Shown here: piece by piece, positions 12,308 to 64,000 of the stretch | Layout of the letters: the number at the start of each line of letters is the position of its first letter | Numbering within the stretch: position 1 is the stretch's first letter | Assembly: GCA_965215195.1 (NCBI GenBank) | Contig: CBDCDC010000002.1 | Location: forward strand, 544,001 to 608,000 | Direction: 5' to 3' | Length of the DNA: 64,000 nt | Source: Candidatus Latescibacterota bacterium | GTDB lineage: Bacteria > Latescibacterota > UBA2968 > UBA8231 | Notes under the pieces: model-generated | What the model was told of the DNA's origin: nothing | The model's database searches: none | Seen by the model: only the letters and a program-made list of their open reading frames with translations | Position numbers and translations under genes: made by a program

Positions 12308-15190
12308 ATGGGCGACGAATTTGGACCTAGCGATGCTTTTGTCCGCCGGCACATCGGCCCTACGGCCGCAGATGTAGCCGCCATGCTGGCGGCCGTGGGG
12401 GCCGACAGCTTGGACGACCTCATGGCCGAGGCCCTGCCGGCGGCGATTCGGATGCAAGGCCCCTTGGCGCTAGGCGAAGGCATCAGCGAGTACGAGCTGA
12501 TGGGGAGGTTGCGCGAATTGGCCGGCCAGAATCGCATACACCGCAGTTTTATCGGCATGGGCTACTCAGGCTGCATAACTCCTCCGGTGATCCAGCGCAA
12601 CATCTTGGAGAATCCAGGCTGGTACACCCAGTACACGCCCTACCAGTCCGAAATCGCCCAAGGGCGGCTAGAGGCCCTGCTCAACTTCCAGACCATGGTC
12701 GGCGACCTGACGGGTTTTGCCCTAGCCAATGCCTCCTTGTTGGACGAAGCCACGGCCGCGGCCGAAGCCATTGCCATGCTGCGGGCAGTGCAAAAGAAAA
12801 ACGCGAGCCAGCGCGTCTTTGTCTCGTCGGCCTGCCACCCGCAAACCATAGCGGTGGTCGAGGTCCGGGCCGAGTCGCGGGGGTGGGAGGTTGTAGTAGG
12901 CGATCACCGAGCATGGGATTTTGCGTCCGGGGCCTTCGCCGCCCTGCTCCAGTACCCGGCCTCGGACGGCGCTCTATACGACTACGCCGCCTTCTGCGCT
13001 CAGGCTCACGCCGAGCAGACGCTCGTGTGCGTGGCGGTCGATTTGCTCGCCCTGTGTTTGCTGCGGCCCCCCGGGGAGTTTGGGGCCGATGCGGCCGTCG
13101 GGAGCGCACAGCGCTTTGGCATGCCGATGGGATACGGCGGCCCGCACGCGGCCTTTTTGGCGACGCGACCCGAGTTCCAGCGGCAGGTGCCCGGGCGCAT
13201 CATTGGCGTCTCCACGGATGTCCGCGGCCAGCCCGCCCTGCGCATGGCCCTGCAAACCCGCGAACAGCACATCAAACGAGAACGGGCGACGAGCAATATA
13301 TGCACGGCCGAGGTCTTGCCAGCCGTGGTGGCGAGCATGTACGCGGTCTATCACGGGCCGGCCGGACTGCGGCGCATGGCCCGTCGCATACACCGCCAAG
13401 CGCGGGCGCTCGCTCGCGGGCTGGAGGAAGCCGGCTACCGCGTCGTCCACGACCAGTACTTTGACGCGCTGCGCGTTGAAGTGGGAGCGCGGGGGGACGC
13501 GCTGTTGGCGCAGGCGCGGGCCGCGGGGATGAACTTCCGCAATCTAGGGGACGGGCACTGGGGCATTGCCCTCGACGAAACGACCCACAAGGCCGATTTG
13601 CAAGCCATCCTCGCCTTGCTGGGCGGCAAGTTGCCTGCCCAAGTCCATGCAGAGCCTGCTTGGACGCCGGTCCACGGCCGCCACTCGCGCTTCATGGAGC
13701 ATCCAGTCTTTGCGGCGCATCACTCCGAGACCGCAATGATGCGCTACATGCGCCGGCTCGAAGCCAAGGATATGTCCTTGGTCCACGCGATGATTCCCCT
13801 CGGCTCGTGTACCATGAAGCTCAATGCGACCGCGGAAATGATGGCGATTACTTGGCCCGAATTCGCTGGGCTGCATCCGTTTGCACCCGTAGAGCAAGCC
13901 CGGGGGTACGCGGCGATTTTCGCCGAAATGGAGGATATGCTGCGCCAAATCACCGGCCTCAAGGGCATTTCCCTGCAACCCAACGCGGGTTCGCAGGGCG
14001 AATACGCCGGCCTACTCATCGTGCGCAAATACCACCGGACGCGCGGGGAGGCCCAGCGCAACGTCTGCCTCATTCCGGCCTCGGCCCATGGGACGAACCC
14101 AGCTAGCGCGGTTATGGCCGGGTTGGACGTGGTAGTCATCGCCTGTGACGAGGAAGGTAATATCGACTTGGCAGACCTGCGGGCGAAGGCCGCCGCACAC
14201 CGCGAACAGCTAGCGGCCCTGATGGTGACGTACCCATCGACCCACGGGGTGTTTGAAGAAGCCATCGGCGAAATCTGCGCGATCGTCCACCAAGCGGGCG
14301 GTCAGGTCTATATGGACGGCGCCAATATGAATGCCTTGGTGGGATTGTGCCGGCCCGGAGAAATCGGCATTGACGTGTGCCACTTGAATTTGCACAAGAC
14401 CTTTTGCATCCCCCACGGCGGGGGCGGCCCGGGGATGGGTCCCATTGCCGTGGCCGAGCACTTGGTGGAGTTCCTGCCCGCGCACCCCCTCGTCCACACC
14501 GGCGGGGCCGCAACGCCTCACCCGCCGCCTTCAGGCGGTGCCTCGATTGGCCCCATTGCGGCCGCGCCGTGGGGCAGTGCCTCGATTCTGCTCATATCGT
14601 GGGCCTACTTGCGCCTGATGGGCGGCTCGGGCCTCACCGAGGCGACGCAGGTGGCGATCCTCAATGCCAATTACCTGAGCCGCCGCCTCGCGGATTCCTT
14701 TCCCGTGTTATACAAAGGGCGCAACGGGCGCGTGGCCCACGAGTGCATCCTCGACCTGCGCTGGGCGCGGAAGTACGGCATTGGCGTAGAAGACGTGGCT
14801 AAACGGTTGATGGACTACGGGTTCCACGCGCCTACGGTATCCTTCCCGGTCGCTGGGACCCTGATGGTCGAACCTACTGAGAGCGAGTCCAAGGCCGAAT
14901 TGGACCGGTTTTGCGCGGCCATGATCGCCATTGGCGGCGAAATCCGGCAAGTAGCTGCCGGAGAGATGGACCGCGCCAACAACCCCCTCGTCCACGCGCC
15001 GCACCCCGTGGATGTCGTGCTGGCCGCCGAGTGGGATCGGCCCTATTCTAGAACCATTGCCGCCCTGCCGGCGCCTTGGCTGTTGGAGCGCAAGTTCTGG
15101 CCGGCCGTAGGGAGGCTGAACGACGCGCAGGGCGATCGCAACCTGATCTGTTCCTGTCCGCCCATAGAAACGTATTCACAAGAGGAATGA
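12308..15190 (+). CDS. gcvP: Glycine dehydrogenase (decarboxylating), single-chain P protein
   Basis: [40 protein letters not shown]. Confidence 0.98.
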
Positions 15191-51003: not shown

Positions 51004-53073
51004 ATGACTAAACTCGAACGCGAAATAGGCGGGCGGGGTCTGTCGCTTGAAACGGGCAGAATCGCCAAGCAAGCCAACGGGGCCGTGTGGGTGCAATACG
51101 GGGAGACCGTAGTGCTCGTAACGGCCTGCCGGACCAACACTCCGGAGGACCGGGGCTTTTTGCCCTTGATCGTAGATTACCGGGAAAAGGCCTACGCTGG
51201 CGGCAAGATACCGGGCAACATCTTCAAGCGCGAAGGGCGTCCCTCCGAAAAGGAGACCCTGAGTGCCCGCTTAATAGATCACCCCATTCGGCCGATGTTT
51301 CCCAAGAAGTTCCCCTATGAGATCCAAGTCTATGTTTCGGTGCTTTCGTACGACGGAGAAAACGACGCTGATGTCTTGGGTTTAATCGGGGCCTCGGCCG
51401 CCCTGAGCATCTCCGACATTCCCTTCGCCGGCCCCATGGGAGCCGTGCGGGTCGGGCGAATCAACGGCCAGTTCGTGGCCAATCCGACCTCGGCCGAGCT
51501 AGATGATTCCGATCTCGAAATCACAGTCTGCGGCACGGCCGATTCCATCGTCAGCGTCGAAGGGGGTGCCCGCGAAATTGCCGAGCAAGATCTGGTGGAT
51601 GCGCTGGCCTTTGGCCACGAGTGCATCGCCGAACTGGTCGAGCTGCAAGAGCAACTCGTCGCCGAAGTTGGCAAGGAGAAAATTGCCATCGAGACTGAGG
51701 AAGCCGATCCCGAACTGGTCCGTGCCGTGGCCGAGCTGGCGCAAGAGCGGATCGCCGAGGCCAACAGAAGCCCGCGCAAAGAAGAGCGGCAAGAGCGCAT
51801 CGACGCGATTAATGCCGATGTCTTGGAGTGCTTGGCCGAGCGCTTCCCAGACGCGGAAAAGCTCATCCGAGCCGAGCTGGAGGCGCTGCTCAAAGCCGAC
51901 ATGCGCACCATGATCCTCGAGGAGAAGCGGCGCATTGACGGCCGTGCGCTCAACGCGGTGCGCGATGTCACCTGCGAGAGCACCGTACTGCCGCGGGTCC
52001 ACGGCTCGGCGCTGTTTACTCGTGGGCAGACGCAAGCGCTGTGCGTGGCAACGCTGGGCATCAAGATCGACGAGCGCATGGCCGACGACCTGCAGGGCAA
52101 GCGGTTTAAGTCCTATTACTTGGATTACAACTTCCCCCCGTATTCGGTCGGCGAAGTGCGCTTTGAGCGCGGTCCGGGACGGCGGGATATCGGCCATGGC
52201 CATCTGGCCGAGCGCGCCCTAGAGCCGGTCATCCCATCGGTCGAGTGCTTTCCCTATACGATTCGGTTGGTGTCCGATATTACCGAGTCGAGCAGCTCCA
52301 GTTCTATGGCTACGGTGTGTGGCTGCTCCTTAGCCTTGATGGACGCCGGCATTCCCGTCAAAACTGCGGTGTGCGGCACGGGCGTGGGCCTAGTCAAGGA
52401 AGGGGACCAGTACGAGCTGTTGACCGACATCCGCGACGCCGAAGATTTTCTCGGCGACATGGACCTCAAGGTCGCCGGCACCAAGGACGGGATTACCGCG
52501 ATCCAGATGGACATCAAGATCCAGGGCTTGCAGCTAGACATTTTCAAGGAAGCCCTCGACCGCGCCAAAGAGGGCCGCGACAAGGTGTTGGCCCTTATGA
52601 ACGAATGCCTGAGCGCGGCGCGGCCCGATCTTTCGCGCTGGGCACCGCGCATTGAGTTTGTCAAGATCGCCCAGAGCAAAATCGGCGCGGTCATCGGCCC
52701 GGGTGGCAAAACCATCCGCGAGATCGAAAAGACCGGTGCTGCGGTCAATGTCGATGAAGACGGCACGATTACCATTTCCTCGGTTGAAGCTGGCCCGGCC
52801 GCAGAGGCGCGGCGCATGATTGAGGGGATCACGGCCGACGCCGAGGTCGGCAAGGAATACGACGGGGTGGTCAAGCGGGTCATGCCCTTTGGGGCCTTCG
52901 TCGAGATTCTACCCGGCAAGGAGGGCCTGTTGCACATCTCCGAGCTGGCGCATCGGCGCGTGGACAAGGTCGAGGACATCGTCGGGCAAGGGGACACTAT
53001 CGCCGTCAAGGTCCTCGAAATCGACACCGGCGGCAAGATGCGGCTCAGCCACAAGGCCCTGCTAAAGAAGTAG
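51004..53073 (+). CDS. pnp: Polyribonucleotide nucleotidyltransferase
   Basis: FKREGRP, HGSALFTRGQTQ, GDMD.KVAG, KH and S1 domains. Confidence 0.97.
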   Translation: MTKLEREIGGRGLSLETGRIAKQANGAVWVQYGETVVLVTACRTNTPEDRGFLPLIVDYREKAYAGGKIPGNIFKREGRPSEKETLSARLIDHPIRPMFPKKFPYEIQVYVSVLSYDGENDADVLGLIGASAALSISDIPFAGPMGAVRVGRINGQFVANPTSAELDDSDLEITVCGTADSIVSVEGGAREIAEQDLVDALAFGHECIAELVELQEQLVAEVGKEKIAIETEEADPELVRAVAELAQERIAEANRSPRKEERQERIDAINADVLECLAERFPDAEKLIRAELEALLKADMRTMILEEKRRIDGRALNAVRDVTCESTVLPRVHGSALFTRGQTQALCVATLGIKIDERMADDLQGKRFKSYYLDYNFPPYSVGEVRFERGPGRRDIGHGHLAERALEPVIPSVECFPYTIRLVSDITESSSSSSMATVCGCSLALMDAGIPVKTAVCGTGVGLVKEGDQYELLTDIRDAEDFLGDMDLKVAGTKDGITAIQMDIKIQGLQLDIFKEALDRAKEGRDKVLALMNECLSAARPDLSRWAPRIEFVKIAQSKIGAVIGPGGKTIREIEKTGAAVNVDEDGTITISSVEAGPAAEARRMIEGITADAEVGKEYDGVVKRVMPFGAFVEILPGKEGLLHISELAHRRVDKVEDIVGQGDTIAVKVLEIDTGGKMRLSHKALLKK

Positions 53074-53099
53074 GTGCCGGTCTTGAGTCAGGGTATGAG

Positions 53100-53130
53100 A
53101 AGGCTATCGAGTCTATCTCGATAGCCTTTT
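53100..53130 (+). terminator. Rho-independent terminator after pnp
   Basis: AAGGCTATCGAG-TCTAT-CTCGATAGCCTT followed by TT. Confidence 0.85.
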
Positions 53131-53225
53131 CTTATGTATGGATAAAGCCGACAGCATTTTAAGGGTACAATGCGAGATTCGACATCAAACCAATTTCTTC
53201 TTGGACTTGCATAGGGATTTTTGCT

Positions 53226-54518
53226 ATGGAGTCGATTCAGGTAGCTGATATCGGCCGCTATGAGGGCCGAGAAGTGGTGCTGCGCGGTTGGCTGTACAAC
53301 AAGCGCTCGAGCGGCAAGCTGCATTTTCTGCAACTGCGCGACGGCAGCGGCGTGGTGCAATGCGTTGTTTTTAAGGGGGATGTCGAGGCCGAGCTATTCG
53401 AGCGCTGCGATCGCTTGCCCCAAGAATCTTCGCTGGTAGTCCGCGGCCAAGTGCGGCGGGAGGCGCGTGCGCCCATCGGCTATGAGGTGGGGGTCCGCCA
53501 CCTCGACGTCGTGCAGGAGGCCGAGCTATATCCCATCGCGCCCAAGGAACACGGGGTGTCCTTTCTCCTCGACCACCGCCACTTGTGGCTGCGGTCTATG
53601 CGGCCTGGGGCCATTCTCAAGGTCCGCAGCGAAATTTGCAAGGCCTGCCGCGACTTCATGGAAGCGCGGGACTTTGTGCTCGTGGATGCGCCGATTTTTA
53701 CGCCCGCGGCCTGCGAGGGGACCTCGACCCTGTTCGAGACCGCGTATTTCGACGACACGGCTTACTTGACCCAGAGCGGCCAGCTCTATATGGAAGCGGC
53801 CGCCATGGCCTTGGGCAAGGTCTATTGTTTTGGCCCGACGTTTCGCGCTGAAAAATCCAAGACCCGCCGGCACCTGACCGAGTTCTGGATGATTGAGCCG
53901 GAGATGGCGTATTGCGATTTGGAGGGGGCCATGGCCTTGGCCGAGGACATGGTCCTGTACGTGCTCGACCGCGTGCTCGACCGCCGCCGCGAAGAGCTAA
54001 AGCACCTCGACCGCGATACCGCCAAGCTGGAACGGGTCGGGCGGCCCTTTCCGCGCCTGACCTACGATGAGGCTGTCGAGCGCTTGGCAGCCCTAGGGAG
54101 CGACATTGCATGGGGGAGCGATTTGGGTGGGGACGACGAAACCGTCCTCGCCTCCGAGTTCGAGTCGCCAGTTTTCGTCCACCGCTATCCCAGCGCGGTC
54201 AAAGCGTTTTACATGAAGGAAGATGCCCAAGACCGCCGCTTAGCCCTGTGCATGGACCTTTTGGCACCCGAAGGGTACGGGGAAATCATCGGGGGCGGGC
54301 AACGCGAAGACGACCTCGCTGTCTTGCAGCACAAAATTGCTGTGCATCAGTTGCCCCAAGAGGCCTTTAGCTGGTATCTCGACTTGCGGCGCTACGGCTC
54401 GGTTGAGCACGCCGGTTTTGGCATGGGAATCGAGCGAGTGGTCGCTTGGTTGTGCGGCGTCAAGCATGTGCGCGAGACCATTCCATTTCCGCGCATGATG
54501 CAGCGTCTCTATCCATAA
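53226..54518 (+). CDS. asnS: Asparagine--tRNA ligase
   Basis: [49 protein letters not shown]. Confidence 0.96.
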
Positions 54519-54546
54519 ATGTCTTATAAGGATGATTATGTCAATC
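54519..54546 (+). other. dif-like Xer site 1
   Basis: ATGTCTTATAA-GGATGA-TTATGTCAATC (11-6-11), overlapping the leuS RBS and start. Confidence 0.65.
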
Positions 54547-57420
54547 AAAAAAAAAGGCCAATACAATTTCCAAGCCATCGAAACCAAATGGCGATCTCAC
54601 TGGGCGCAGGAGAAGACCTATCAAACGCTGGGACCGGGGGATCCCGGCTTCGATAACAGCAAACCCAAGTGCTACATCCTCGATATGTTTCCCTATTCAA
54701 GCGGCGCCGGGTTGCACATCGGCCATCCCAAAGGGTATATCGCCAGCGACATTTACAGCCGCTACAAAAGGATGTGGGGGTTTAACGTCCTGCACCCGAT
54801 GGGGTTCGACAGTTTTGGATTGCCGGCCGAGCAATACGCCATCGAACACAATGTCCATCCAGCGACCTTTACCGAGCAGAATATCGCTGCGATGCGCAGC
54901 CAATTGCAGTTTCTCGGGCTGTCGTTTGACTGGGCTCGCGAAGTGGTCACGTCGCGGCCGTCGTATTACCGCTGGACGCAGTGGATTTTCGCCCAACTCT
55001 TCGATAGCTATTTCGACGCAGACGAAATCTGGGAAGACGGCAATGGACGCCAAATAAAGGGGCGGACCAAGCCCATCGCCGACTTAGAGGCGCAATTTGC
55101 GGCCGGCCGGGCCTTGTCGGCCACAGATCGCCAAGTTCTTGGCAGCGACGCGGTTTGGTCTGCACTAACCGAGGCCGAGCACCAAACGGTGCTGAATAAC
55201 TACCGGCTGGCGTACCAGCAAGAGGCTGTCGTCAACTGGTGCCCTCGCTTGGGCACTGTGTTGGCCAACGAGGAGGTGACCAGCGAGGGCCGCAGCGAGC
55301 GGGGCAATTTTCCCGTGTATCGCAAACCGTTGCGGCAATGGACGATGCGCATAACAGCCTACGCCGAGCGGCTCTTAGAGGACTTGGACCTTGAACTGGA
55401 AGACCGCGCTGGCGAGCCCTTCCGGATCGATTGGCCAGAACCCATCAAGCGGATGCAGCGCAACTGGATCGGCCGCAGCGAAGGGGCTGAAGTGCGCTTC
55501 GATGTCCTCGATCCGCAAAGCGACGTGGTCGCCGCGCAGTTGCCCGTGTTCACCACCCGGCCCGACACGCTCTTTGGGGCGACTTTTATGGCCATTGCCC
55601 CTCAGCATCCGCTGGTAGATCCTGCCAAAGAATCCTACTTGGTCCCCAAGGCTTGGCCCGACGGGACGCCCGAACAGTGGAAGGGGGGAGGGGACCTCAT
55701 CCGGGAAGCCGTAGCCCAGTACGTAGCTCAAACGGCCGTCTCCACCGCGGATGAAACCAAGGAAAAAACGGGCATTTTCTCCGGCATCTACGCCCGCAAT
55801 CCGGTCAATGGACAAAAAATCCCCATTTTCGTCGCCGACTACGTCAGCATGGACTACGGCGCGGGAGCCATTATGGCGGTGCCGGCCCACGACGAGCGCG
55901 ACTTTGCCTTCGCCATCACGTATAACTTGGATATTGTGCGGGTGGTTGATGGGGGGGAAGGGGAGGCCGCAGGGTGGTATGCCGGGGAGGGAATCGCCAT
56001 CAATTCGCCTTCAGTACTCGCCAGCGATAGTCCATACACCATTAACGGATTGGCGACGGCCGCGGCCAAAGACCAGATCGTCGCTGCACTCGCTGCCCAA
56101 GGGCGAGGCCAAGCTGCGGTAAACTACAAACTGCGCGACTGGACCTTTGCTCGGCAGCGCTATTGGGGAGAACCCTTTCCACTGGCCACGCATCCCGATG
56201 GATATTCCGTCAAAGTCACGCCTCCGGTGGCGCTACCGGCACTAGAGGACTTCAGGCCGGAGACCTCGGATGACCCCGCCCAACCCGTTTCTCCGCCGCT
56301 GCACCGGGCCGGAGCGGAGTGGACGACGGTGGAAATTGACGGGGTGGCCTGCCAACGCGATCTCAACGTCATGCCCCAATGGGCCGGTTCTTGCTGGTAC
56401 TATCTCCGCTTTATCGATCCGCACAACGAAGAAGCCTTCTGCGACCCGGCCAAGGAGGGCTACTTCATGCCCGTTGATCTCTACATCGGCGGTGCGGAAC
56501 ACGCGGTGTTGCACTTGCTCTACGCCCGGTTTTGGCACAAGGCCCTCTACGACTTAGGCCACGTATCCACGCCCGAGCCGTTTAAGAAGCTGTTCAATCA
56601 AGGCATGATGACCGCGGATGCCTTTCAGGACGAGCGCGGCGTGTATATCGACATTCGGGAGGTTGAGTTCCGCGACGGGGAGCCTGTTGAGAAGGGGACG
56701 GGCAAGACGCTGCATCGGTCTTCTGGCAAGATGGGCAAACGCTACAAAAACGGATTGCCGCCCGAAGAAGTCGGCGAGGAATTTGGCGTGGATACCCTGC
56801 GGCTGTACGAAATGTACATGGGGCCGCTCGAAGCGAGTGCGCCGTGGAGCATGGAAGGCATTCGCGGGATGCAGCGCTTTTTGCAGCGCATTTGGCGCAA
56901 CTTTGTCGATTCGGATCGACAGGTGAAAATAGGGGAGAGTGCTGCGTTAGTGCCGGAGTTGGAACGCAAGCTGCACCAAACCATCCAAAAGGTAACTGAG
57001 GACATAGAAGGGCTGCGGTTTAATACGGCTATTGCCACCTTGATCGAGCTAAACAACCTGTTGGTCCCCTTGGACGAGGTGCCGCAGGCCGTCGCCAAGC
57101 CCTTCTTGCTCTTGCTCGCGCCCTTTGCTCCGCATATTGCCGAGGAGCTATGGGAGTTGGCGAATTTTGGGAAGGGAGACCTCAATCGTCAGAGCTGGCC
57201 TGACTGGGATGCCGCAAAAGCCGCCGAGGACATGATCGTAGTGCCCATTCAGGTCAACGGCAAAATGCGCGGACAAGTCGAAGTGCCGGTCCACACCGGA
57301 GAGGACGAGATAAAGTCCTTGGTGCTCGCCATGGCGAGCATCCGCAAATACGTGGCCGATGAAACGGCGATAAAGCGGTTTATATGGGTGCCGGATAGAA
57401 TCGTCAATATCGTGGTGTAG
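54538..57420 (+). CDS. leuS: Leucine--tRNA ligase
   Basis: MFPY.SG.GLHIGH, FTTRPDT, YIGGAEHAVLHLLY, KMGKR (KMSKS variant). Confidence 0.98.
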   Translation: MSIKKKGQYNFQAIETKWRSHWAQEKTYQTLGPGDPGFDNSKPKCYILDMFPYSSGAGLHIGHPKGYIASDIYSRYKRMWGFNVLHPMGFDSFGLPAEQYAIEHNVHPATFTEQNIAAMRSQLQFLGLSFDWAREVVTSRPSYYRWTQWIFAQLFDSYFDADEIWEDGNGRQIKGRTKPIADLEAQFAAGRALSATDRQVLGSDAVWSALTEAEHQTVLNNYRLAYQQEAVVNWCPRLGTVLANEEVTSEGRSERGNFPVYRKPLRQWTMRITAYAERLLEDLDLELEDRAGEPFRIDWPEPIKRMQRNWIGRSEGAEVRFDVLDPQSDVVAAQLPVFTTRPDTLFGATFMAIAPQHPLVDPAKESYLVPKAWPDGTPEQWKGGGDLIREAVAQYVAQTAVSTADETKEKTGIFSGIYARNPVNGQKIPIFVADYVSMDYGAGAIMAVPAHDERDFAFAITYNLDIVRVVDGGEGEAAGWYAGEGIAINSPSVLASDSPYTINGLATAAAKDQIVAALAAQGRGQAAVNYKLRDWTFARQRYWGEPFPLATHPDGYSVKVTPPVALPALEDFRPETSDDPAQPVSPPLHRAGAEWTTVEIDGVACQRDLNVMPQWAGSCWYYLRFIDPHNEEAFCDPAKEGYFMPVDLYIGGAEHAVLHLLYARFWHKALYDLGHVSTPEPFKKLFNQGMMTADAFQDERGVYIDIREVEFRDGEPVEKGTGKTLHRSSGKMGKRYKNGLPPEEVGEEFGVDTLRLYEMYMGPLEASAPWSMEGIRGMQRFLQRIWRNFVDSDRQVKIGESAALVPELERKLHQTIQKVTEDIEGLRFNTAIATLIELNNLLVPLDEVPQAVAKPFLLLLAPFAPHIAEELWELANFGKGDLNRQSWPDWDAAKAAEDMIVVPIQVNGKMRGQVEVPVHTGEDEIKSLVLAMASIRKYVADETAIKRFIWVPDRIVNIVV

Positions 57421-57442
57421 GAGGTAAGTGTGCGGCGATAAT

Positions 57443-57470
57443 AAGTCTTATAAAATTTTTTATGTAAATA
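57443..57470 (+). other. dif-like Xer site 2
   Basis: AAGTCTTATAA-AATTTT-TTATGTAAATA. Confidence 0.75.
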
Positions 57471-57492
57471 AAAAACAAAGACAAAAAACCCC

Positions 57493-58473
57493 TCAGCTAC
57501 CAATACCAATCCTAATATAATCCGACGCATTATCGAGCAGTTTATCGCGGTTCTCGTAGTAGCGCATGGTCGTCTTTAGATCCTTGTGGCGCAAATGGGC
57601 TTGCACCTGCTGGGGCTTGGCCCCGCCTTCAATCGCCAAGGTGCAGCAGGTGTGGCGGAACATGTGCGCGGTGACGTTTTGGGGGAGGCCGGCGCGCAGG
57701 GCGTACTTCTTGACGATGTGATTTACCGACTGATCGGTTAGTGGCTGGCCGCGAGACTGGTTGCGCGACAGGCTGATGAAAACCTTGCCCGTCGTCGGCA
57801 AGCCCGCTGCTCGTAGTTGTTGTTTGTATAGTTCGAGATGATGCAGGACGACGCTTTGCAGTTTGATTTCCTGCGCCATGCCCGATTTAGTCTGGGGCAG
57901 GTGCAAAATGTAAAAGACGCCCTCCAAAGATATATCCTCCCAAGCGACGCCCGCCACTTCGGAGCGGCGCAGCCCACCGAAAGTGAGCAACTGAAACATA
58001 GCCGCATCGCGCGTACGGACCAAGTCGTCTTTTTCCTCGGCAATGGCTTGCTGGATCTTGTTCAGCACCTGATTGGAAAGTGCTTTGCCGGCCAGCGTTT
58101 CATCTACCTTGTAACCGCGCACCAAGGTGGAGTCGGCGGGATTTTTCTCGATGTGGCCCAAGGCGACCAACATCTTGAAGAACGACTTTAGGCTGGATAA
58201 TTTTCTGTTGATGCTGCTGCGCTTGTAACCTTCGCTGGCGAGTTGGTTTCTAAAGGCGACCACGTGCTCAAAGGTGATTGACTGCAAGACAGCGAGGGAC
58301 ACTTTATCCAGTTCCAAGCCGATAGATAAAAAGAAATGCTGGAGATCGGCGTAATAGGCACGCCGGGTGCGCTCGCTGAGCTGGCCGCTGAGAAATTGTT
58401 CCAAAGGATCGTCTGACGCCACCGCGGGTGTTGGCGTCAGACTGCGGACGACCGGAGTGAGTGTGCGGCTCAT
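57493..58473 (-). CDS. Tyrosine recombinase (Xer-like, not canonical XerC/XerD)
   Basis: SAM-like N-domain (TRRAY..DL; SINRKLSSLKSFF), GLRRSEV, TKSG, HMFRH, HLRH, TTMRY catalytic set. Confidence 0.95.
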   Translation of the reverse strand: MSRTLTPVVRSLTPTPAVASDDPLEQFLSGQLSERTRRAYYADLQHFFLSIGLELDKVSLAVLQSITFEHVVAFRNQLASEGYKRSSINRKLSSLKSFFKMLVALGHIEKNPADSTLVRGYKVDETLAGKALSNQVLNKIQQAIAEEKDDLVRTRDAAMFQLLTFGGLRRSEVAGVAWEDISLEGVFYILHLPQTKSGMAQEIKLQSVVLHHLELYKQQLRAAGLPTTGKVFISLSRNQSRGQPLTDQSVNHIVKKYALRAGLPQNVTAHMFRHTCCTLAIEGGAKPQQVQAHLRHKDLKTTMRYYENRDKLLDNASDYIRIGIGS

Positions 58474-58596
58474 TGAATATGCTTACAGGGGCTAAAGGTC
58501 TGAGGCATTAAATATCCGGGATGTTCTTAACAGTGGCTAAAGAATAGAGTAAATATAGCGAACATCGCGGCATTTTGCTGTCGATTCGCCTAGACA

Positions 58597-58632
58597 TTAT
58601 ACTACCGATAACAGGCATTATCGGTAGTATAA
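58597..58632. other. Perfect palindromic recombinase crossover-type site
   Basis: TTATACTACCGATAA-CAGGCA-TTATCGGTAGTATAA; 15-bp perfect arms and an asymmetric 6-bp spacer. Confidence 0.85.
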
Positions 58633-58654
58633 ATCGTAAAAAAATAAAAGTCAA
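58626..58654 (-). promoter_or_regulatory. Sigma70-type promoter of the recombinase, overlapping the palindrome
   Basis: Minus strand TTGACT-17 nt-TATACT. Confidence 0.75.
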
Positions 58655-58893
58655 TGAGAGCGAGACAAAGACATGTAACGTCGGCTGGATTGGTCTGTTG
58701 GTGTTGGCCTTGGTTTCGGTGTGGCGTGGTTTCCTTGGCGGCGCGTCAGCTTCTCGCTGCGTCAAGGCATCGAACTGTCATACAAATATGCCTCCAACGT
58801 TCCGCCGAAGCCCGAACTTGACCATTCACATAGGTTTTCCTTGGGCGTTCCGTCTATGCGCCTACTTGCGCTCGTCCATTTTTAGTTGCAGCC

Positions 58894-60666
58894 CTATAAC
58901 TTCTGCAACAAACGCTCCATATCGCGCAACTTCATCCGCGCCATGATCGGCTTGTCCGTCGGGCTTATGTGCGGCCGGTCAACCTTGAGCAATTCGTCGA
59001 TCAAATGCGCCATTGCCTCGGCGTTCAGTTTCTGCCCCTTCTTGATACTCGCTTTGCGCGCATAAGCCAAGACGAGTGCTTCGCGCCAAGATCGGCCCGA
59101 ATGCTGGCCATCGCGCACGTCGTTCAATAGCTGATAAAAAGCATCGCCTTCGCCAAAGCGATCCAATTCGGCGGGCATTGCCTCCACCAACACCGTCCGC
59201 GTACCAAAATCCCGCACGCCAAAGCCCAGCTTGGCAATGTCGGCCCGCACTTGCTCGAAGACCGCAAAATCCGCTGCGCCCATTTCTAGCTGGATGGGAA
59301 AGAGCAACTGCTGACTCTCGCCAGCCACGCCGTCCATTTGCGCCATGGCCCGATCGTAGTTGATGCGCTCGTGCGCGGCCTGCTGATCGACGAAGAGCAA
59401 GCCGTCGGCAACCTCGACGAGGATGTACTGGTTGTGGACCTGCCACATCGCGGCGTTTTCGACCAAGGCGACTTTGGCCGCGGCCGGGGCGACGAAGGTC
59501 AAGGCGAGTTCGTCGTCTGCACCGTGGGTTGCTGCTACCGCGGACTCGCCAGGTGCGGCCGGGCTGTGCAACACCGGCGACGCTGGTTCGCCCACGCGGG
59601 CCGTAGCACTGGGAGGTGTGCTGTCCGGCCGCATTGGGGCCGCAGCATAGACAAAGGATTGCACATCGGGCAGCCTGAGCTTCTGCCGGACGCTGTCTTC
59701 AATGGCCGCGATGACCTGCCCTTCGTTGGCCAAGCGAATCTCCCGCTTTGTCGGATGGACATTGACATCGATCTTCTTGGGATCCATATCGATCCAGAGC
59801 ATGAATACCGGATGGTGTCCTTCGGGCAGCAGCCCCTCAAAACACCGCTGTACAGCACTGGCCATCAGTCGCGAAGAAATGGGCCGCCCCTGTACGATGA
59901 GGTACTGCTTGCCCTTGCTCCGGCCGCAGTGCTCAGGACCAGCCAAGACGCCTTCGATTTTGAGGCCCTCTTCCTCATAAGCGAGATCCAACAGTTCGGC
60001 GGCTGGATCAGCCCGGCCTCGCATGCCCAACAACTCGGCCGCCCGCTCCCGACGAGGTGCCGGGGCGTAGCTCAATACTTGGTGCGCTTGGTGCGCTAGT
60101 TCAAAGCCAAGGGCCGGGTAACCGGCGGCTAAATGAATGATGGTCTGGGCCACGTGCCGGGCTTCCGCCTCGACGGAGCGGAGGAATTTGCGCCGCGCCG
60201 GCGTATTAAAAAACAAGTTCTTTACCGCGATAGTCGTGCCGCGTACGCGGCCCATGCTGTGCATCTCTCGCTCTATGCCCCCTTCCACGACCAAGCGCGT
60301 CCCGACTTCGTCTTGCTGGGTGCGCGATTCTATCGCCAAGTGAGCCACCGCCCCAATGCTGGCTAGCGCCTCGCCGCGAAATCCCAGCGTCTGAATGCGA
60401 AATAGGTCGGCCACCGAGGCCATCTTGCTCGTGGCATGACGGCGCACACACAAAGCGATATCCTCCCTGTTCATGCCCGATCCATCGTCGGTCACCACAA
60501 TCGACTGCTTGCCACCGGCCTTAATTTCCACGCGGATTTTAGCAGCGCCCGCATCGATCGAGTTTTCGACCAATTCCTTCACGACCGAGGCCGGCCGTTC
60601 CACCACCTCGCCAGCGGCAATTTTGCCAATGAGACTTTCGTCGAGAACGCGAATGGTACTCGCCAT
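58894..60666 (-). CDS. mutL: DNA mismatch repair endonuclease MutL
   Basis: IAAGEVVERPASVVKELVENSIDA, TLGFRGEAL, DVNVHPTK, DQQAAHER; C-terminal Zn-ligand motifs diverged (ASIK, HISP). Confidence 0.97.
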   Translation of the reverse strand: MASTIRVLDESLIGKIAAGEVVERPASVVKELVENSIDAGAAKIRVEIKAGGKQSIVVTDDGSGMNREDIALCVRRHATSKMASVADLFRIQTLGFRGEALASIGAVAHLAIESRTQQDEVGTRLVVEGGIEREMHSMGRVRGTTIAVKNLFFNTPARRKFLRSVEAEARHVAQTIIHLAAGYPALGFELAHQAHQVLSYAPAPRRERAAELLGMRGRADPAAELLDLAYEEEGLKIEGVLAGPEHCGRSKGKQYLIVQGRPISSRLMASAVQRCFEGLLPEGHHPVFMLWIDMDPKKIDVNVHPTKREIRLANEGQVIAAIEDSVRQKLRLPDVQSFVYAAAPMRPDSTPPSATARVGEPASPVLHSPAAPGESAVAATHGADDELALTFVAPAAAKVALVENAAMWQVHNQYILVEVADGLLFVDQQAAHERINYDRAMAQMDGVAGESQQLLFPIQLEMGAADFAVFEQVRADIAKLGFGVRDFGTRTVLVEAMPAELDRFGEGDAFYQLLNDVRDGQHSGRSWREALVLAYARKASIKKGQKLNAEAMAHLIDELLKVDRPHISPTDKPIMARMKLRDMERLLQKL

Positions 60667-60672
60667 ATATCC

Positions 60673-61197
60673 TCACAACTCGGCCCAGAGCCGCTCGGCC
60701 TGCTGCCGGAATTCGGCTTGGGTAATTTTGCCTTGTTTGAGCGCGGTTTCCAAGTCGCGCAAGCGGCGGCGCGGCCCCCCGCCCCCTTTGAGATCCAGCC
60801 GTATTTGGGACCAGATGTGCCACCCCCCCACGCCGAGCAACAAGGCCATGAAGACCGCCCCTACCCACCACGAGGTATCTTGCTCGTGGCGCACCGCTCC
60901 CCCCTTTTGTCGCCAATCTTCGGCCACGGCTGGGTCAGGCTCGGCCAGCGCGATCCGCTTGGCCAGTGCCGCGCCGTTGGTCCCTTGGACGCGCACGGCC
61001 CTTTTGAGCTGCCAAGTAAATCCCCGGGGTTGCACGATTAGATACTCGATGAGATCGGCCTTTCTTATCTGATCGAACTGCTCCCTAGTAACCGGCACGA
61101 TCATTGGGCTGAGCATATTGAACAGCAACACGATTGCTAACAAGAAGCTCGCTAAGCCGAGAGCGAAGTATGTGGGCGGTGTGGATGACTTTTTCAT
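60673..61197 (-). CDS. Two-TM membrane protein with SHOCT-like C-terminus
   Basis: TM helices at both ends of a soluble loop; LRDLETALKQGKITQAEF. Confidence 0.7.
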   Translation of the reverse strand: MKKSSTPPTYFALGLASFLLAIVLLFNMLSPMIVPVTREQFDQIRKADLIEYLIVQPRGFTWQLKRAVRVQGTNGAALAKRIALAEPDPAVAEDWRQKGGAVRHEQDTSWWVGAVFMALLLGVGGWHIWSQIRLDLKGGGGPRRRLRDLETALKQGKITQAEFRQQAERLWAEL

Positions 61198-61201
61198 TCT
61201 T

Positions 61202-61229
61202 TGTTTACATAAAAAATTTTATTGGACAT
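61202..61229 (-). other. dif-like Xer site 3 (inverted relative to site 2)
   Basis: Minus strand ATGTCCAATAA-AATTTT-TTATGTAAACA; 24/28 identical to site 2. Confidence 0.75.
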
Positions 61230-62017
61230 TATTTTACTTGCTTGCGATTTAAGACCGCGTCTTGTCTCGCCGACGTGCGCATCCATTCCAAGAGGCGATA
61301 GCTTTCGCCCACCTGCCCCAAACCCAATAACGGCTGGGCGTGCCCTTGGATACAGGCGACGAAATTGCGATAGTACGCCGCCAGATCGTCCGCTTCCCAC
61401 GCCCAAGGCCAAGACGCATCGACTATTTCGTCCTGTGCATATGAGCGGATCCGCAAAGCCGGGGCCACAGCCGGAAAGTCGAAGAGCGCAACCGAGCCTT
61501 CGACGCCGTTGCGCATCCTCAGCAGCGCGAGCGACACATCCTCCATGCGCCCGGGATGAAAGAAGTTGCGCATCCTGCTGTACAGCACATCTACCGGCCC
61601 CCAAGTGCTCACCAGCAGGTCGCATACGTCCAAGATCGCTTGGTTGCAGATCGTCTCGCGGTCGATGGGATCGAAGGAAGCCGAATCAAAAGAAAGCTCT
61701 AAGGAGTAATGCGCTACGCCTCGTCGGGCGGCCAGAGCCGCGCAAAAGCGCGTATGCCGCCCCAAGGACAGCACACCTACATTCGGATGGCTACCCTGTA
61801 CGGGATGGGTCGCCATAACGTGCAGACCGACCGCTGTGGCCACGCCGATCCAGTGCGATTTATCGTCCACGTGTAACAGCACTAGCCCATCTATTTCTTG
61901 CTCCAAAACCGCGGCGCAGTCGGCTTGGTGTACGAGCTGGATATCGCAGCAACCCCGCAAGGCACCCCGATGGGCGGCTACCTCGCGGGCATGGCCTACC
62001 ACGCCGAGCGTCATCAT
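61229..62017 (-). CDS. Degenerate Gfo/Idh/MocA-like oxidoreductase-fold protein
   Basis: LGVVG start, GLHV...P, DLL...GPV, ED.....L....G..G, F..CI.G...P. Confidence 0.55.
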   Translation of the reverse strand: MMTLGVVGHAREVAAHRGALRGCCDIQLVHQADCAAVLEQEIDGLVLLHVDDKSHWIGVATAVGLHVMATHPVQGSHPNVGVLSLGRHTRFCAALAARRGVAHYSLELSFDSASFDPIDRETICNQAILDVCDLLVSTWGPVDVLYSRMRNFFHPGRMEDVSLALLRMRNGVEGSVALFDFPAVAPALRIRSYAQDEIVDASWPWAWEADDLAAYYRNFVACIQGHAQPLLGLGQVGESYRLLEWMRTSARQDAVLNRKQVK

Positions 62018-62952
62018 GTCTTACCCGCCTTAATCCGCTCGCGGAGCCGCTCGCTAAACGCCTGCGCTGCGTGCGCTCCCTCCAAGCGCAAGAGGTAATC
62101 CATCGCTATAGTCTCGGCGAGTACCGTGATATTTTTGCCGGGAAACAGCGGTATGAAGACCTCGGGCACCTCAACGCCGAGGATTACCACCTTATTGTCT
62201 TCGAGGCCAAGGCGTTCGTATGCGTATTTTTCGTCCCAATCAACTAGGTTGACCAATACCTCCACCCGCTTCTGTCGGCGAGTCCCCCACACGCCAAACA
62301 TCTTTTTTACGTCTAGGATGCCAATGCCGCGAATTTCGATGTGGTCTTGGAGCATCTCCGAGCTGCGCCCCACCAAAATGCCTTGGGGCTTGCGGTTGAT
62401 GATGACCATATCGTCGGCCACCAACCGATGTCCGCGCTCAACCAAATCCAAGGCGACCTCGCTTTTGCCAATGCCGCTGCGGCCGCGAAAGAGCAGCCCT
62501 ACCCCAGAGACATCGAGCAGCGTCCCATGCACGGACACTTGGGGCGCGAACACCTCGTCGAGGTAAAAGCGGATGAGATGGGTAAACTCGGCTGTGTTGA
62601 ATTCGGACTTCAGCAGTGGCACCGTGCATTCGTCGGCTAGCTGCCGCAACTCGGAGTACACGCGCCCCCGACCGGTCCAGACCACGCAGGGAATATCGAA
62701 TTGATATATGATTTTGAGGGCCTGTCGCCGTCGCTCTGAGGATAAGCTGCACAGGTACTCCGCTTCGGTATTGCCCAAGAGCTGCACTTGATCTAAGGTG
62801 AACAACTCAACGAAGCCGGTCAGGGCCAAGCCGGGGCGATGGATGTCGCTGTTGTTGATGGTCCGCTGTACCCCCTTGGCACCGGCGATGAGCTTCAGCC
62901 GCAGTTGCTGCCCGTAGGTAGCTAGCAGATCTTTGATGGCCAGTTCACTCAT
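62014..62952 (-). CDS. hprK: HPr kinase/phosphorylase
   Basis: HRPGLALTG, VHG.LLDV.GVG, G.SGIGKSE.AL.LV.RGHRLVADD, EIRGIGI. Confidence 0.97.
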   Translation of the reverse strand: MSELAIKDLLATYGQQLRLKLIAGAKGVQRTINNSDIHRPGLALTGFVELFTLDQVQLLGNTEAEYLCSLSSERRRQALKIIYQFDIPCVVWTGRGRVYSELRQLADECTVPLLKSEFNTAEFTHLIRFYLDEVFAPQVSVHGTLLDVSGVGLLFRGRSGIGKSEVALDLVERGHRLVADDMVIINRKPQGILVGRSSEMLQDHIEIRGIGILDVKKMFGVWGTRRQKRVEVLVNLVDWDEKYAYERLGLEDNKVVILGVEVPEVFIPLFPGKNITVLAETIAMDYLLRLEGAHAAQAFSERLRERIKAGKT

Positions 62953-63850
62953 CGCTGCGCAAGCTTTCGAAGATGCGCCGGTATCCTTCGTAGCGCACCG
63001 ACGCTACCCGGCCGGCCGCCACAGCCGTGCGAACCGCGCAACCGGGTTCGTGCAAGTGGCTGCAATCGCCGAATTGACACTGGCCGAGCAGAGGTTCTAG
63101 CTCGGGATAATACGTCTCTAGCTCAGCGGATTTTACTCCCCATAAGCGGAGCTCTTTAACCCCTGGCGTATCGGCCACATAGCCGCCTTGTTGCAACTTG
63201 AACAAATGCACGGCCGCGGTCGTGTGCCGGCCGCGGTCATGGCGCTTCATTATTTCCTTTGTCTTTAGTCCCAACCCCGGTTCGATGCCGTTGAGCAAGG
63301 TCGATTTGCCGACCCCAGACTGGCCGATCACGGCCGTGCTGCGATTGAGCAGGGCCTCTTTGAACGCGCCCATGCCATCGCCCCGCACGGCACTGGTGCG
63401 ATAGATTGGATAACCGAGGGCCTCGTAGGGCGCACTTAGGGTGTTCACGGCCGCTGCGGACGCTAAATCGACCTTGTTGATGCAGAGCACGGGCTGGAGA
63501 TTTCCCTTGGCGGCCATGACAATCGCTCGCTCGATAAAGCCGCGGCGGGGCCTCGGTTGGCGAGCGGCCACGACGACGACCACTTGTTCCATATTGACAA
63601 CGAGGATCTGCTCAAACGGGCGCGTCCCACTGGCCCCGCGCGAAAACTTGGAAGATCGGGGATGCACTGCTTCGATGACGCCCGTCCGTTCGGCCGTAGG
63701 CGCGACATCGACCCAGTCGCCGGCCGCGACCGGGGAACTAGTCTTGCGACATCCTGCCTTGAGGCGGCCCCTAATCTCGCATTGCCAGTGGCTTTGCTCA
63801 ACCTCGACGAGGCACTGTAGCCCAGAGACTCTGATGATGCGGCCCTGCAT
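62945..63850 (-). CDS. rsgA: Small ribosomal subunit biogenesis GTPase
   Basis: NKVD, GQSGVGKS, GRHTT, DTPG, CQFGDCSHLHEPGC. Confidence 0.96.
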   Translation of the reverse strand: MQGRIIRVSGLQCLVEVEQSHWQCEIRGRLKAGCRKTSSPVAAGDWVDVAPTAERTGVIEAVHPRSSKFSRGASGTRPFEQILVVNMEQVVVVVAARQPRPRRGFIERAIVMAAKGNLQPVLCINKVDLASAAAVNTLSAPYEALGYPIYRTSAVRGDGMGAFKEALLNRSTAVIGQSGVGKSTLLNGIEPGLGLKTKEIMKRHDRGRHTTAAVHLFKLQQGGYVADTPGVKELRLWGVKSAELETYYPELEPLLGQCQFGDCSHLHEPGCAVRTAVAAGRVASVRYEGYRRIFESLRSDE

Positions 63851-63866
63851 GTGCGCCCGCCCCGGC

Positions 63867-64000
63867 CTATTCCCCTTTGGCCAAGCGCTCGGCTAGGTAG
63901 TTGGGGTAGCCGAGGTTGTCGATCTTCTGTTGGGTCAGCTTGACTGGGTATTCGACGCGCTGGAGTTCGACCCATTGTTCGTCCGCGTCCCACAAGGTGT
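63867..64000 (-). CDS. 3' end of probable metallophosphoesterase family protein (truncated by window edge)
   Basis: ...LWDADEQWVELQRVEYPVKLTQQKIDNLGYPNYLAERLAKGE*. Confidence 0.6.
   Translation of the reverse strand, partial: TLWDADEQWVELQRVEYPVKLTQQKIDNLGYPNYLAERLAKGE

Follow-up and report, generated by a model that had tools for sequence, protein, structure and literature searches.

The region described here lies within a 64,000-nucleotide stretch (hereafter the window, C2:544001-608000) of the genome of a Candidatus Latescibacterota bacterium, whose two contigs total 6,134,125 bases with a G+C content of 60%. It contains three copies of a 28-bp sequence with the format of dif, the chromosomal site of the XerC/XerD recombinases: two 11-bp arms flank a 6-bp centre (the spacer), the inner ends of the arms read ATAA and TTAT, and an XerD-type arm is conserved. 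Site S1 (54519-54546, + strand, ATGTCTTATAA-GGATGA-TTATGTCAATC) lies between asnS and leuS, and site S2 (57443-57470, + strand, AAGTCTTATAA-AATTTT-TTATGTAAATA) at the junction where leuS and a recombinase gene, here called Xer3, converge. Site S3 (61202-61229, - strand, ATGTCCAATAA-AATTTT-TTATGTAAACA) has the same spacer as S2 and is inverted relative to it. Both arms are well kept in all three sites, not the XerD-type arm alone. A direct repeat of 41 nt (D4), which includes an A-tract, joins S1 to S2, and an inverted repeat of 31 nt that is 87% complementary (I1) joins S2 to S3. A sequence-only reading of the window had listed these three 11-6-11 sites and placed them at gene boundaries, with the first and third nearly filling their gaps; the coordinates and strands proved correct throughout, and the gap that holds S3 measures 31 nt.

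The sites are close to unique in the genome. The pattern GTCNNATAA-N6-TTATGTNAA has three matches, which are S1, S2, and S3, and ATAA-N6-TTATGT has five matches genome-wide. The more permissive ATAA-N6-WTATGTMAA likewise has five, all within one 29-kb stretch and compared with about 0.075 expected from base composition, while the same pattern read backwards, used as a control, has one. A weight matrix of the arms only, built from 52 such sites in relatives, ranks S1 to S3 first to third genome-wide (42.6, 42.6, and 35.4 bits). They are followed by two sites beyond the window: S4 (C2:610776-610803, - strand, 22.9 bits), 5.5 kb past S3 and 2.8 kb past the window end, and S5 (C2:627678-627705, - strand, 20.5 bits), 22 kb past S3 and 19.7 kb past the window end. 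Next is a match of 20.1 bits on the other contig in which the right arm is absent, and all remaining matches score at most 14 bits. The sequence-only reading had suggested such a genome-wide scan, and the outcome is not that of a scattered transcription-factor motif. The array it proposed holds as far as its three sites go but is larger, since S4 and S5 fall outside the window. Overall, S1 and S2 lie on the + strand and S3, S4, and S5 on the - strand, so that the two groups converge.

As a separate observation, 111 IMG/VR viral contigs (L039 onward, many of 4-8 kb) match GTCYTATAA-N6-WTATGTMAA. Chance in AT-rich sequence and Xer-exploiting phages are both conceivable sources of these matches, which we did not use as evidence.

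The sites are closely interwoven with the genes around them. The class II aminoacyl-tRNA synthetase gene asnS (53226..54518, + strand; Pfam PF00152/PF01336) ends with its stop codon immediately before S1, and leuS (54538..57420, + strand; assigned with Pfam) begins inside it, with the ATG at 54538 in the right arm of S1 and the ribosome-binding GGA supplied by the spacer GGATGA. An upstream ATG of leuS present in the window is absent from all six relatives shown, and the conserved start is the one at 54538. The right arm of S1 and the A-tract behind it encode an N-terminal extension of LeuS (MS-I/T-K..KK, window 54538-54560), whose lysines come from the A-tract that S1 and S2 have in common; relatives without S1 have no such extension, and their LeuS starts at MSEGSY or similar. 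Beyond S2 follow, all on the - strand, the gene for the 326-aa tyrosine recombinase Xer3 (57493..58473; PF00589/PF02899, with catalytic-type motifs visible), mutL (58894..60666; Pfam PF08676, PF01119, and PF13589), and a gene for a 174-aa protein with two hydrophobic stretches (60673..61197), whose ATG stands 4 nt after S3. The 3.7-kb block between S2 and S3, which is referred to below as the cassette, thus holds the 174-aa gene as its first gene, mutL, a palindromic site (P, described below), and Xer3. On the right the cassette is bordered by an unnamed gene for a 262-aa protein (unk262), hprK, and rsgA (61229..63850, - strand; Pfam), and this flank continues toward S4 and S5. The first base of S3 is the last base of the unk262 stop codon, and the last two bases of S4 begin the start codon of a phosphoribosyltransferase gene. 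The latter gene sits between two paralogues of ribose-phosphate pyrophosphokinase. Searches of Pfam and NCBIfam gave no usable match for the 174-aa protein, which has a sub-threshold match to GvpG, nor for the 262-aa protein.

Replication of the chromosome ends at this locus. On C2 the cumulative GC skew reaches its maximum at 602,741 (window position 58,741), between S2 and S3, and its minimum opposite, at 3,523,388, beside dnaA (C2:3,523,847-3,525,187). The distance from dnaA to the array in five related complete chromosomes is 0.47, 0.51, 0.52, 0.50, and 0.52 of the circle. The coding strand also switches at S2, with pnp, asnS, and leuS on the + strand and the genes from the recombinase through rsgA on the - strand. 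The second contig has positive skew throughout. The sequence-only reading had not placed the locus at the terminus, and the position shifts the reading from an odd array to an elaborated dif locus.

To describe conservation we used related loci from metagenome-assembled genomes labelled Latescibacterota and in some cases Gemmatimonadota, many of them complete chromosomes. Among the 35 loci that the search returned, 32 are orthologous (61-94% identity) and were kept, and three unrelated spirochaete loci (26%) were dropped. Nearly all close relatives have the same sites at the same gene junctions; a lack of conservation is what the sequence-only reading had named as a refutation. A site of at least 14 bits lies between asnS and leuS at the S1 position in 25 of the 28 loci covering this junction and is missing in the distant loci L026, L027, and L032. 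The cassette genes of the relatives are likewise enclosed by a pair of sites, and S4 follows rsgA in 20 of the 32 loci (some loci end before that place). Both S4 and S5, which share the strand of S3, have syntenic counterparts in five relatives, and S5 lies 16.9-17.5 kb past S4 in six of six genomes. A sixth site, S0 (L037:2398-2425, equivalent to G002:C1:874397-874424), occurs 14.5 kb before S1 in three of five relatives searched, where it fills a gene junction and gives the downstream gene its start codon; S0 was not found in the genome of the window. Thus S0, S1, S3, and S4 abut or contain start codons, and S2 (on the recombinase side) and S5 stand at gene ends.

The whole genomes of five relatives have 5-7 matches each to the permissive pattern, and 28 of these 29 matches fall within one array of about 44 kb, all on the + strand on one side and all on the - strand on the other (backwards-pattern controls: 0, 0, 0, 1, and 0). 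The convergent polarity is strict in all six genomes, the window's own and the five relatives, and in place of one dif per chromosome there are five sites in the former and five or six in each of the latter. The arms are conserved across relatives and the 6-bp spacer varies between species, the pattern of conserved arms and species-variable spacer that is described for dif (PMC2731167). The distant loci L026 and L032 keep a single site, between Xer3 and leuS, which is the position of S2. For this reason a single dif beside Xer3 is likely to be the ancestral state, with S2 as the probable original site. The gene orders asnS-leuS and unk262-hprK-rsgA are fixed in every locus that covers them except L024 and L025, in which asnS is absent between pnp and leuS (around 13953-14083) and S1 is kept. 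In these two loci the third site stands before the 262-aa gene rather than after it.

What does change among relatives is the orientation of the cassette. It is oriented as in the window in 21 of 31 informative orthologous loci and flipped in the other 10 (one further locus is uninformative). In the window orientation leuS and Xer3 converge, and in the flipped orientation leuS, the 174-aa gene, mutL, and Xer3 run in one direction and converge on the 262-aa gene. In three sister pairs of opposite orientation, the flanking sequence is unchanged up to the outer edges of the 28-bp sites, which are therefore the breakpoints. No longer inverted repeats surround the block in this region, and the S2/S3 pair is the longest. 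Orientation changed at least six times along a tree of 28 rows that a quick IQ-TREE run gave for the flanking genes pnp, leuS, hprK, and rsgA; five of these changes are forced by starred branches, and the orientation labels cluster no more than they do after shuffling, where 101-127 of 500 shuffles were as low. The outgroup species L024, L025, L027, L030, and L032 on that tree all have the window orientation. The cassette's own tree (mutL and Xer3) requires at least seven changes, six of them forced, and contains the same mixed sister pairs, whose divergence is about 5%. Transfer of cassette alleles, which we considered as a cause of the orientation pattern, was rejected on the strength of these shared sister pairs. 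Misassembly is also unlikely, because assembly k-mers exceed the repeats in length and many of the genomes were assembled as chromosomes from long reads. Thus, the cassette has been inverted repeatedly among related species, with breakpoints at the sites.

The inversion would alter how two genes are read. Judging from the spacing of the genes, there is no room for a promoter in front of the 174-aa gene and mutL in either orientation, and they would have to be read from the operon upstream; each flip would therefore swap that operon, which is on the hprK side in this genome and on the leuS side in flipped genomes.

The two inner sites also exchange sequence. Their spacers are identical within 6 of 20 genomes, including that of the window (AATTTT), compared with 36 of 380 comparisons between genomes (9.5%), and 65 of 10,000 permutations reach the observed within-genome value; it is this enrichment that reveals the exchange. 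In every member of the close clade the spacer of S1 begins with GG and provides the ribosome-binding site of leuS, whereas spacers of the inner sites mostly consist of A and T only, and S4 mostly has CATATA together with a weaker left arm. On Acinetobacter plasmids, reversible XerC/D inversions are described between oppositely oriented sites with identical spacers, and the reversible Xer events reported there occurred only between identical-spacer sites (PMC9947245). By analogy, differing spacers would keep leuS and the hprK group from being deleted. An exception to this rule is L022, where S4 has the same spacer as the inner site next to it.

Four proteins with the PF00589 domain are encoded in the genome. 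One passes as XerD (347.2 bits against an equivalog cut-off of 329.6) and a second is XerC-like; both are encoded away from the locus, which answers the check for xerC and xerD that the sequence-only reading had proposed. The "second recombinase" that it had noted at the locus is indeed Xer-like but is a third, divergent member. Xer3 scores 136.9 bits with the XerC model and 125.8 with the XerD model and reaches no family cut-off, including those of XerS (79.7 bits, cut-off 267) and the Fim-type invertases (NF007370, 39.8 bits, cut-off 221; NF007371, 36.7 bits, cut-off 222). Among solved structures its nearest match is E. coli XerD (1a0p, E 8.7e-18), and the XerH structure matches with E 8.4e-6. 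Xer3 has 335 relatives at E<=1e-10; among the best 120 of these 335, all are at least 61% identical and the source names are only XerC, XerD, or tyrosine recombinase. XerD, the XerC-like protein, and Xer3 are all present in the five relatives searched. The genome also encodes an FtsK with a gamma domain (FtsK_gamma, 104.6 bits) and an SMC protein, found with the SMC hinge (ScpA/B were not searched for). The fourth tyrosine recombinase gene (C2:323003-324121) scores 122.7 bits with the XerC model, below every cut-off.

Xer3 adjoins S2 and the P site in nearly all relatives. P (58601..58628, read on the - strand, ACTACCGATAA-TGCCTG-TTATCGGTAGT) is a near-perfect palindrome of 11-6-11 layout with 13-bp arms between mutL and Xer3, which the sequence-only reading had not listed. 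Of 32 loci, 31 have P in front of Xer3, the most distant ones among them, and elsewhere in the genome there are only weak look-alikes. We regard P as a likely Xer3 binding site or operator. Its spacer among relatives is either TGCCTG or the exact reverse complement, with three changes on the tree, for which a hairpin-type template switch may be one explanation. In two sequencing runs, X1 and X4, contigs begin at position 58618 with 15 unaligned letters, in which the P spacer is opposite to that of the window, and another X4 contig runs through the P spacer to 58626 as in the window; these contigs hint, without amounting to proof, that both forms coexist. Covariation between the P arms is weak (88.5% paired versus 85.9% in shuffles, with one position truly co-varying), and Rfam gave no family match in 53000-64000, so that the P palindrome corresponds to no known RNA. 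The best sigma-70-like promoter match of the region (TTGACT-17-TATACT, 58626..58654, - strand, 10 of 12 positions) overlaps the edge of P with its -10 element, and the total of promoter-like matches in the region is not above that in shuffles. A P-like palindrome, ACTCCCGATAA-GGGATA-TTATCGGGAAT, also occurs at C2:1669663-1669690, at a great distance from all recombinase genes. Compared with most relatives, the window has about 240 bp more between mutL and P (58629-58893), and run contigs break there; L016, L018, L019, and L031 have other insertions at this gap.

Taken as a whole, we consider it probable that this is a terminus and dimer-resolution locus at which an ancestral dif was multiplied into a polar array, and that the inner pair of sites flips the cassette by site-specific recombination. 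The locus would then represent a new form of Xer/dif biology, in which one invertible cassette sits inside a fixed polar array. In the proposed sequence of events, a single ancestral dif beside a lineage-specific third Xer-like recombinase would have been multiplied into an array of XerC/XerD-type sites in the order S1> S2> [cassette] <S3 <S4 <S5, with S0 added in some relatives. All XerD-type arms face the centre of the array, S2 and S3 form an inverted innermost pair, and site-specific recombination between S2 and S3 would flip the 3.7-kb cassette. The reaction would presumably start at the XerC-arm side, and junctions between unlike spacers could be completed by branch migration or replication. 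The outer sites, with their unlike spacers or weaker left arms, would not recombine with the inner pair, which would explain why essential genes that lie between direct repeats escape deletion. The outer sites would probably be Xer-binding terminus sites, serving as back-up dif or in condensin unloading like the XerD-binding sites (XDS) of B. subtilis. With each flip, the first two cassette genes would change from the rsgA-hprK operon to the asnS-leuS operon or the reverse.

Several observations weigh against this interpretation. Textbook Xer recombination places the exchange in the central hexamer. Here the inner spacers differ in 14 of 20 genomes, which should hinder a complete Xer exchange in two steps. 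In the three sister pairs, moreover, both spacer and right arm have moved together with the cassette. Left-arm variants (TCC and TTG) are likewise seen on the side of the 174-aa gene in both orientations. The exchange would accordingly seem to take place within the left arm or at the outer edge of that arm, and not in the hexamer. The XerC-like protein narrowly misses its equivalog cut-off (318.4 bits against 335.15). The conserved P site suggests that Xer3 has another DNA specificity, and the connection of Xer3 to the flip is positional. The contigs of four runs (X1, X2, X4, and X5) contain no strand-switch joint, although contigs cannot show absence; an X5 contig spans 56558-62500 and an X4 contig bridges S2, both in the window orientation, and other contigs end within or beside sites (X1 at 57468 and X4 at 61200), which could reflect a branch or mere strain variation. 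Finally, the genome is in two contigs, which we infer from the skew to be a single chromosome.

The position of the exchange point has two fits, a junction on the XerC side that migrates into the identical left arms, to be resolved there by replication or another enzyme, or short homology acting without a recombinase, and it bears directly on the alternative that the flips involve no site-specific recombinase at all. In that case short-homology recombination or template switching at the 28-31-bp inverted repeats, aided by colliding forks at the terminus, would have turned the cassette around at sites that might still bind Xer proteins. The exchange at the identical left arm or its outer edge, the apparent travelling of whole sites with the cassette, and the unlike spacers are what such a process would leave behind, and the P spacer, flipped three times on the tree, resembles a product of hairpin-type template switching. 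However, at least five to six independent flips among species that differ by about 5% are many for 28-bp repeats 3.7 kb apart, the repeats have the form of recombinase core sites in a genome that encodes three Xer-type recombinases, and spacer identity within genomes is enriched. On balance we regard recombinase-free flipping as unlikely. We consider it distinctly improbable that the array is mainly a polar DNA-protein barrier, either for XDS-like unloading of Smc-ScpAB or as an Xer-family fork trap like those of Tus or RTP, with recombination a secondary matter. The strict convergence of the two groups in six of six genomes, the syntenic outer sites with their constant distance from S4 to S5, and the presence of SMC would suit a barrier, and unloading of Smc-ScpAB through XerD and XDS is reported for B. 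subtilis (PMC11840125, PMC11894783). Yet a barrier of this type would not account for both arms being kept in S1 to S3, and the polarity may simply follow gene direction, given that S0, S1, S3, and S4 stand at the start codons of co-oriented genes.

The remaining two alternatives concern the nature of the sites themselves. The sequence-only reading had inferred a dif-module array with core genes as cargo, and the array might accordingly be mobile, similar to pdif modules or to integrative mobile elements exploiting Xer (IMEX), with leuS and mutL carried along. Sites that fill gaps at gene boundaries, an inner block bounded by inverted sites like pdif modules, and the resemblance of S1 to a copy of S2, A-tract included, all recall such modules. 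But leuS stands beside S1, and after asnS where that gene is present, in all 28 loci covering the junction; no module was found in another context and no mobile-element genes were found; and the genes between the sites are housekeeping genes that remain syntenic over 61-94% protein identity. Of that earlier inference, the dif-like sites unique to this place survive, while mobility is not seen: the gene-order comparison that it had called for finds the flanks asnS-leuS and unk262-hprK-rsgA fixed and only the S2-S3 block changing, by inversion. Its view of leuS as module cargo is not supported: leuS never moves, and the direct repeats that flank it have unlike spacers. We therefore give mobile modules very little credence. 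It is equally hard to credit that the motif is unrelated to Xer and serves a handful of genes near the terminus as a cis-regulatory element, whether operator or translation leader. The four sites at start codons would be natural for such an element, but S2 and S5 stand at gene ends, the layout is that of dif with a free spacer, the motif is confined to the terminus in six genomes, and the inversion breakpoints coincide with it.

Comparison with known systems places site-specific recombination at the terminus in context. As in E. coli-type XerC/XerD-dif with FtsK, the sites are 28 bp with an 11-6-11 layout, an ATAA/TTAT inner palindrome, and a TTATGTxAA arm, the skew switches opposite dnaA, and XerD, a XerC-like protein, and FtsK-gamma are encoded; here, however, there are five to six convergent sites, an inverted inner pair around genes, and an extra recombinase at the site. 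The Acinetobacter plasmid pXerC/D (pdif) sites described in PMC9947245 likewise occur as several sites in both orientations, undergo inversion, and depend on spacer identity. By contrast, the sites here are chromosomal, lie at the terminus among housekeeping genes in a fixed context, and have been flipped in many cases with unlike spacers in the inner pair; fusion, resolution, and module shuffling are not seen, and of the marks of pdif modules, mobility, plasmid location, and accessory cargo are lacking, whereas inversion between opposed sites is present. B. subtilis XDS resemble the array in that several dif-like sites are spread over the terminus beside dif, and an SMC protein is encoded here too; an unloading role is reported there (PMC11840125, PMC11894783). 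XerS/difSL, XerH/difH, and archaeal XerA/dif share the linkage of a recombinase gene to a presumed terminus site, but Xer3 scores below those families and XerC-like and XerD proteins are also present. As with IMEX that have two dif sites, exemplified by the gonococcal genetic island (PMC5357621), direct dif-type repeats stably flank DNA, but that DNA consists here of core genes conserved across species and not of a mobile island, and no variably present mobile or phage element lies between the direct repeats. Tus-Ter and RTP fork traps also have two opposed polar groups of sites around the terminus. A Tus-type trap was rejected, since the genome, 95.2% complete, has no match to PF05472 (RTP was not searched for). 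The literature that we searched describes no invertible chromosomal cassette bounded by dif sites, although the supplements of dif surveys (PMC2731167, PMC3025954), which were outside the search, might list genomes with several dif sites; on Xer/dif in Latescibacterota the same literature yielded nothing, only soil and plant-microbiome papers that, judged by title and opening of the abstract, are unrelated.

A more far-reaching version of terminus recombination, which we offer as speculation and think unlikely, is that the locus is a stochastic switch combined with a polar terminus organiser. The promoterless mutL pair would be rewired by each flip, changing mismatch-repair dosage and producing a phase-variable mutator, and the flips by Xer proteins would possibly be coupled through FtsK to dimer resolution or cell division. 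The convergent array, Xer3, and the palindrome would act as the organiser, stopping or unloading DNA-translocating machines that arrive from either arm.

Textbooks give each chromosome a single dif, whose copy number and orientation are regarded as subject to tight constraint. The clade described here maintains, as a whole, five to six full dif-type sites, strictly convergent, at the terminus, tolerates direct repeats around essential genes, and repeatedly flips a cassette that contains mutL. If Xer proteins are responsible, Xer-mediated inversion would extend from resistance plasmids to the core of the chromosome, and the locus would offer a natural system in which to study the control of Xer outcomes by spacer identity, FtsK direction, and the polarity of the sites. 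For the Latescibacterota, of which we know of no cultured model, the array may also represent a candidate form of terminus organisation, through either condensin unloading or fork arrest.

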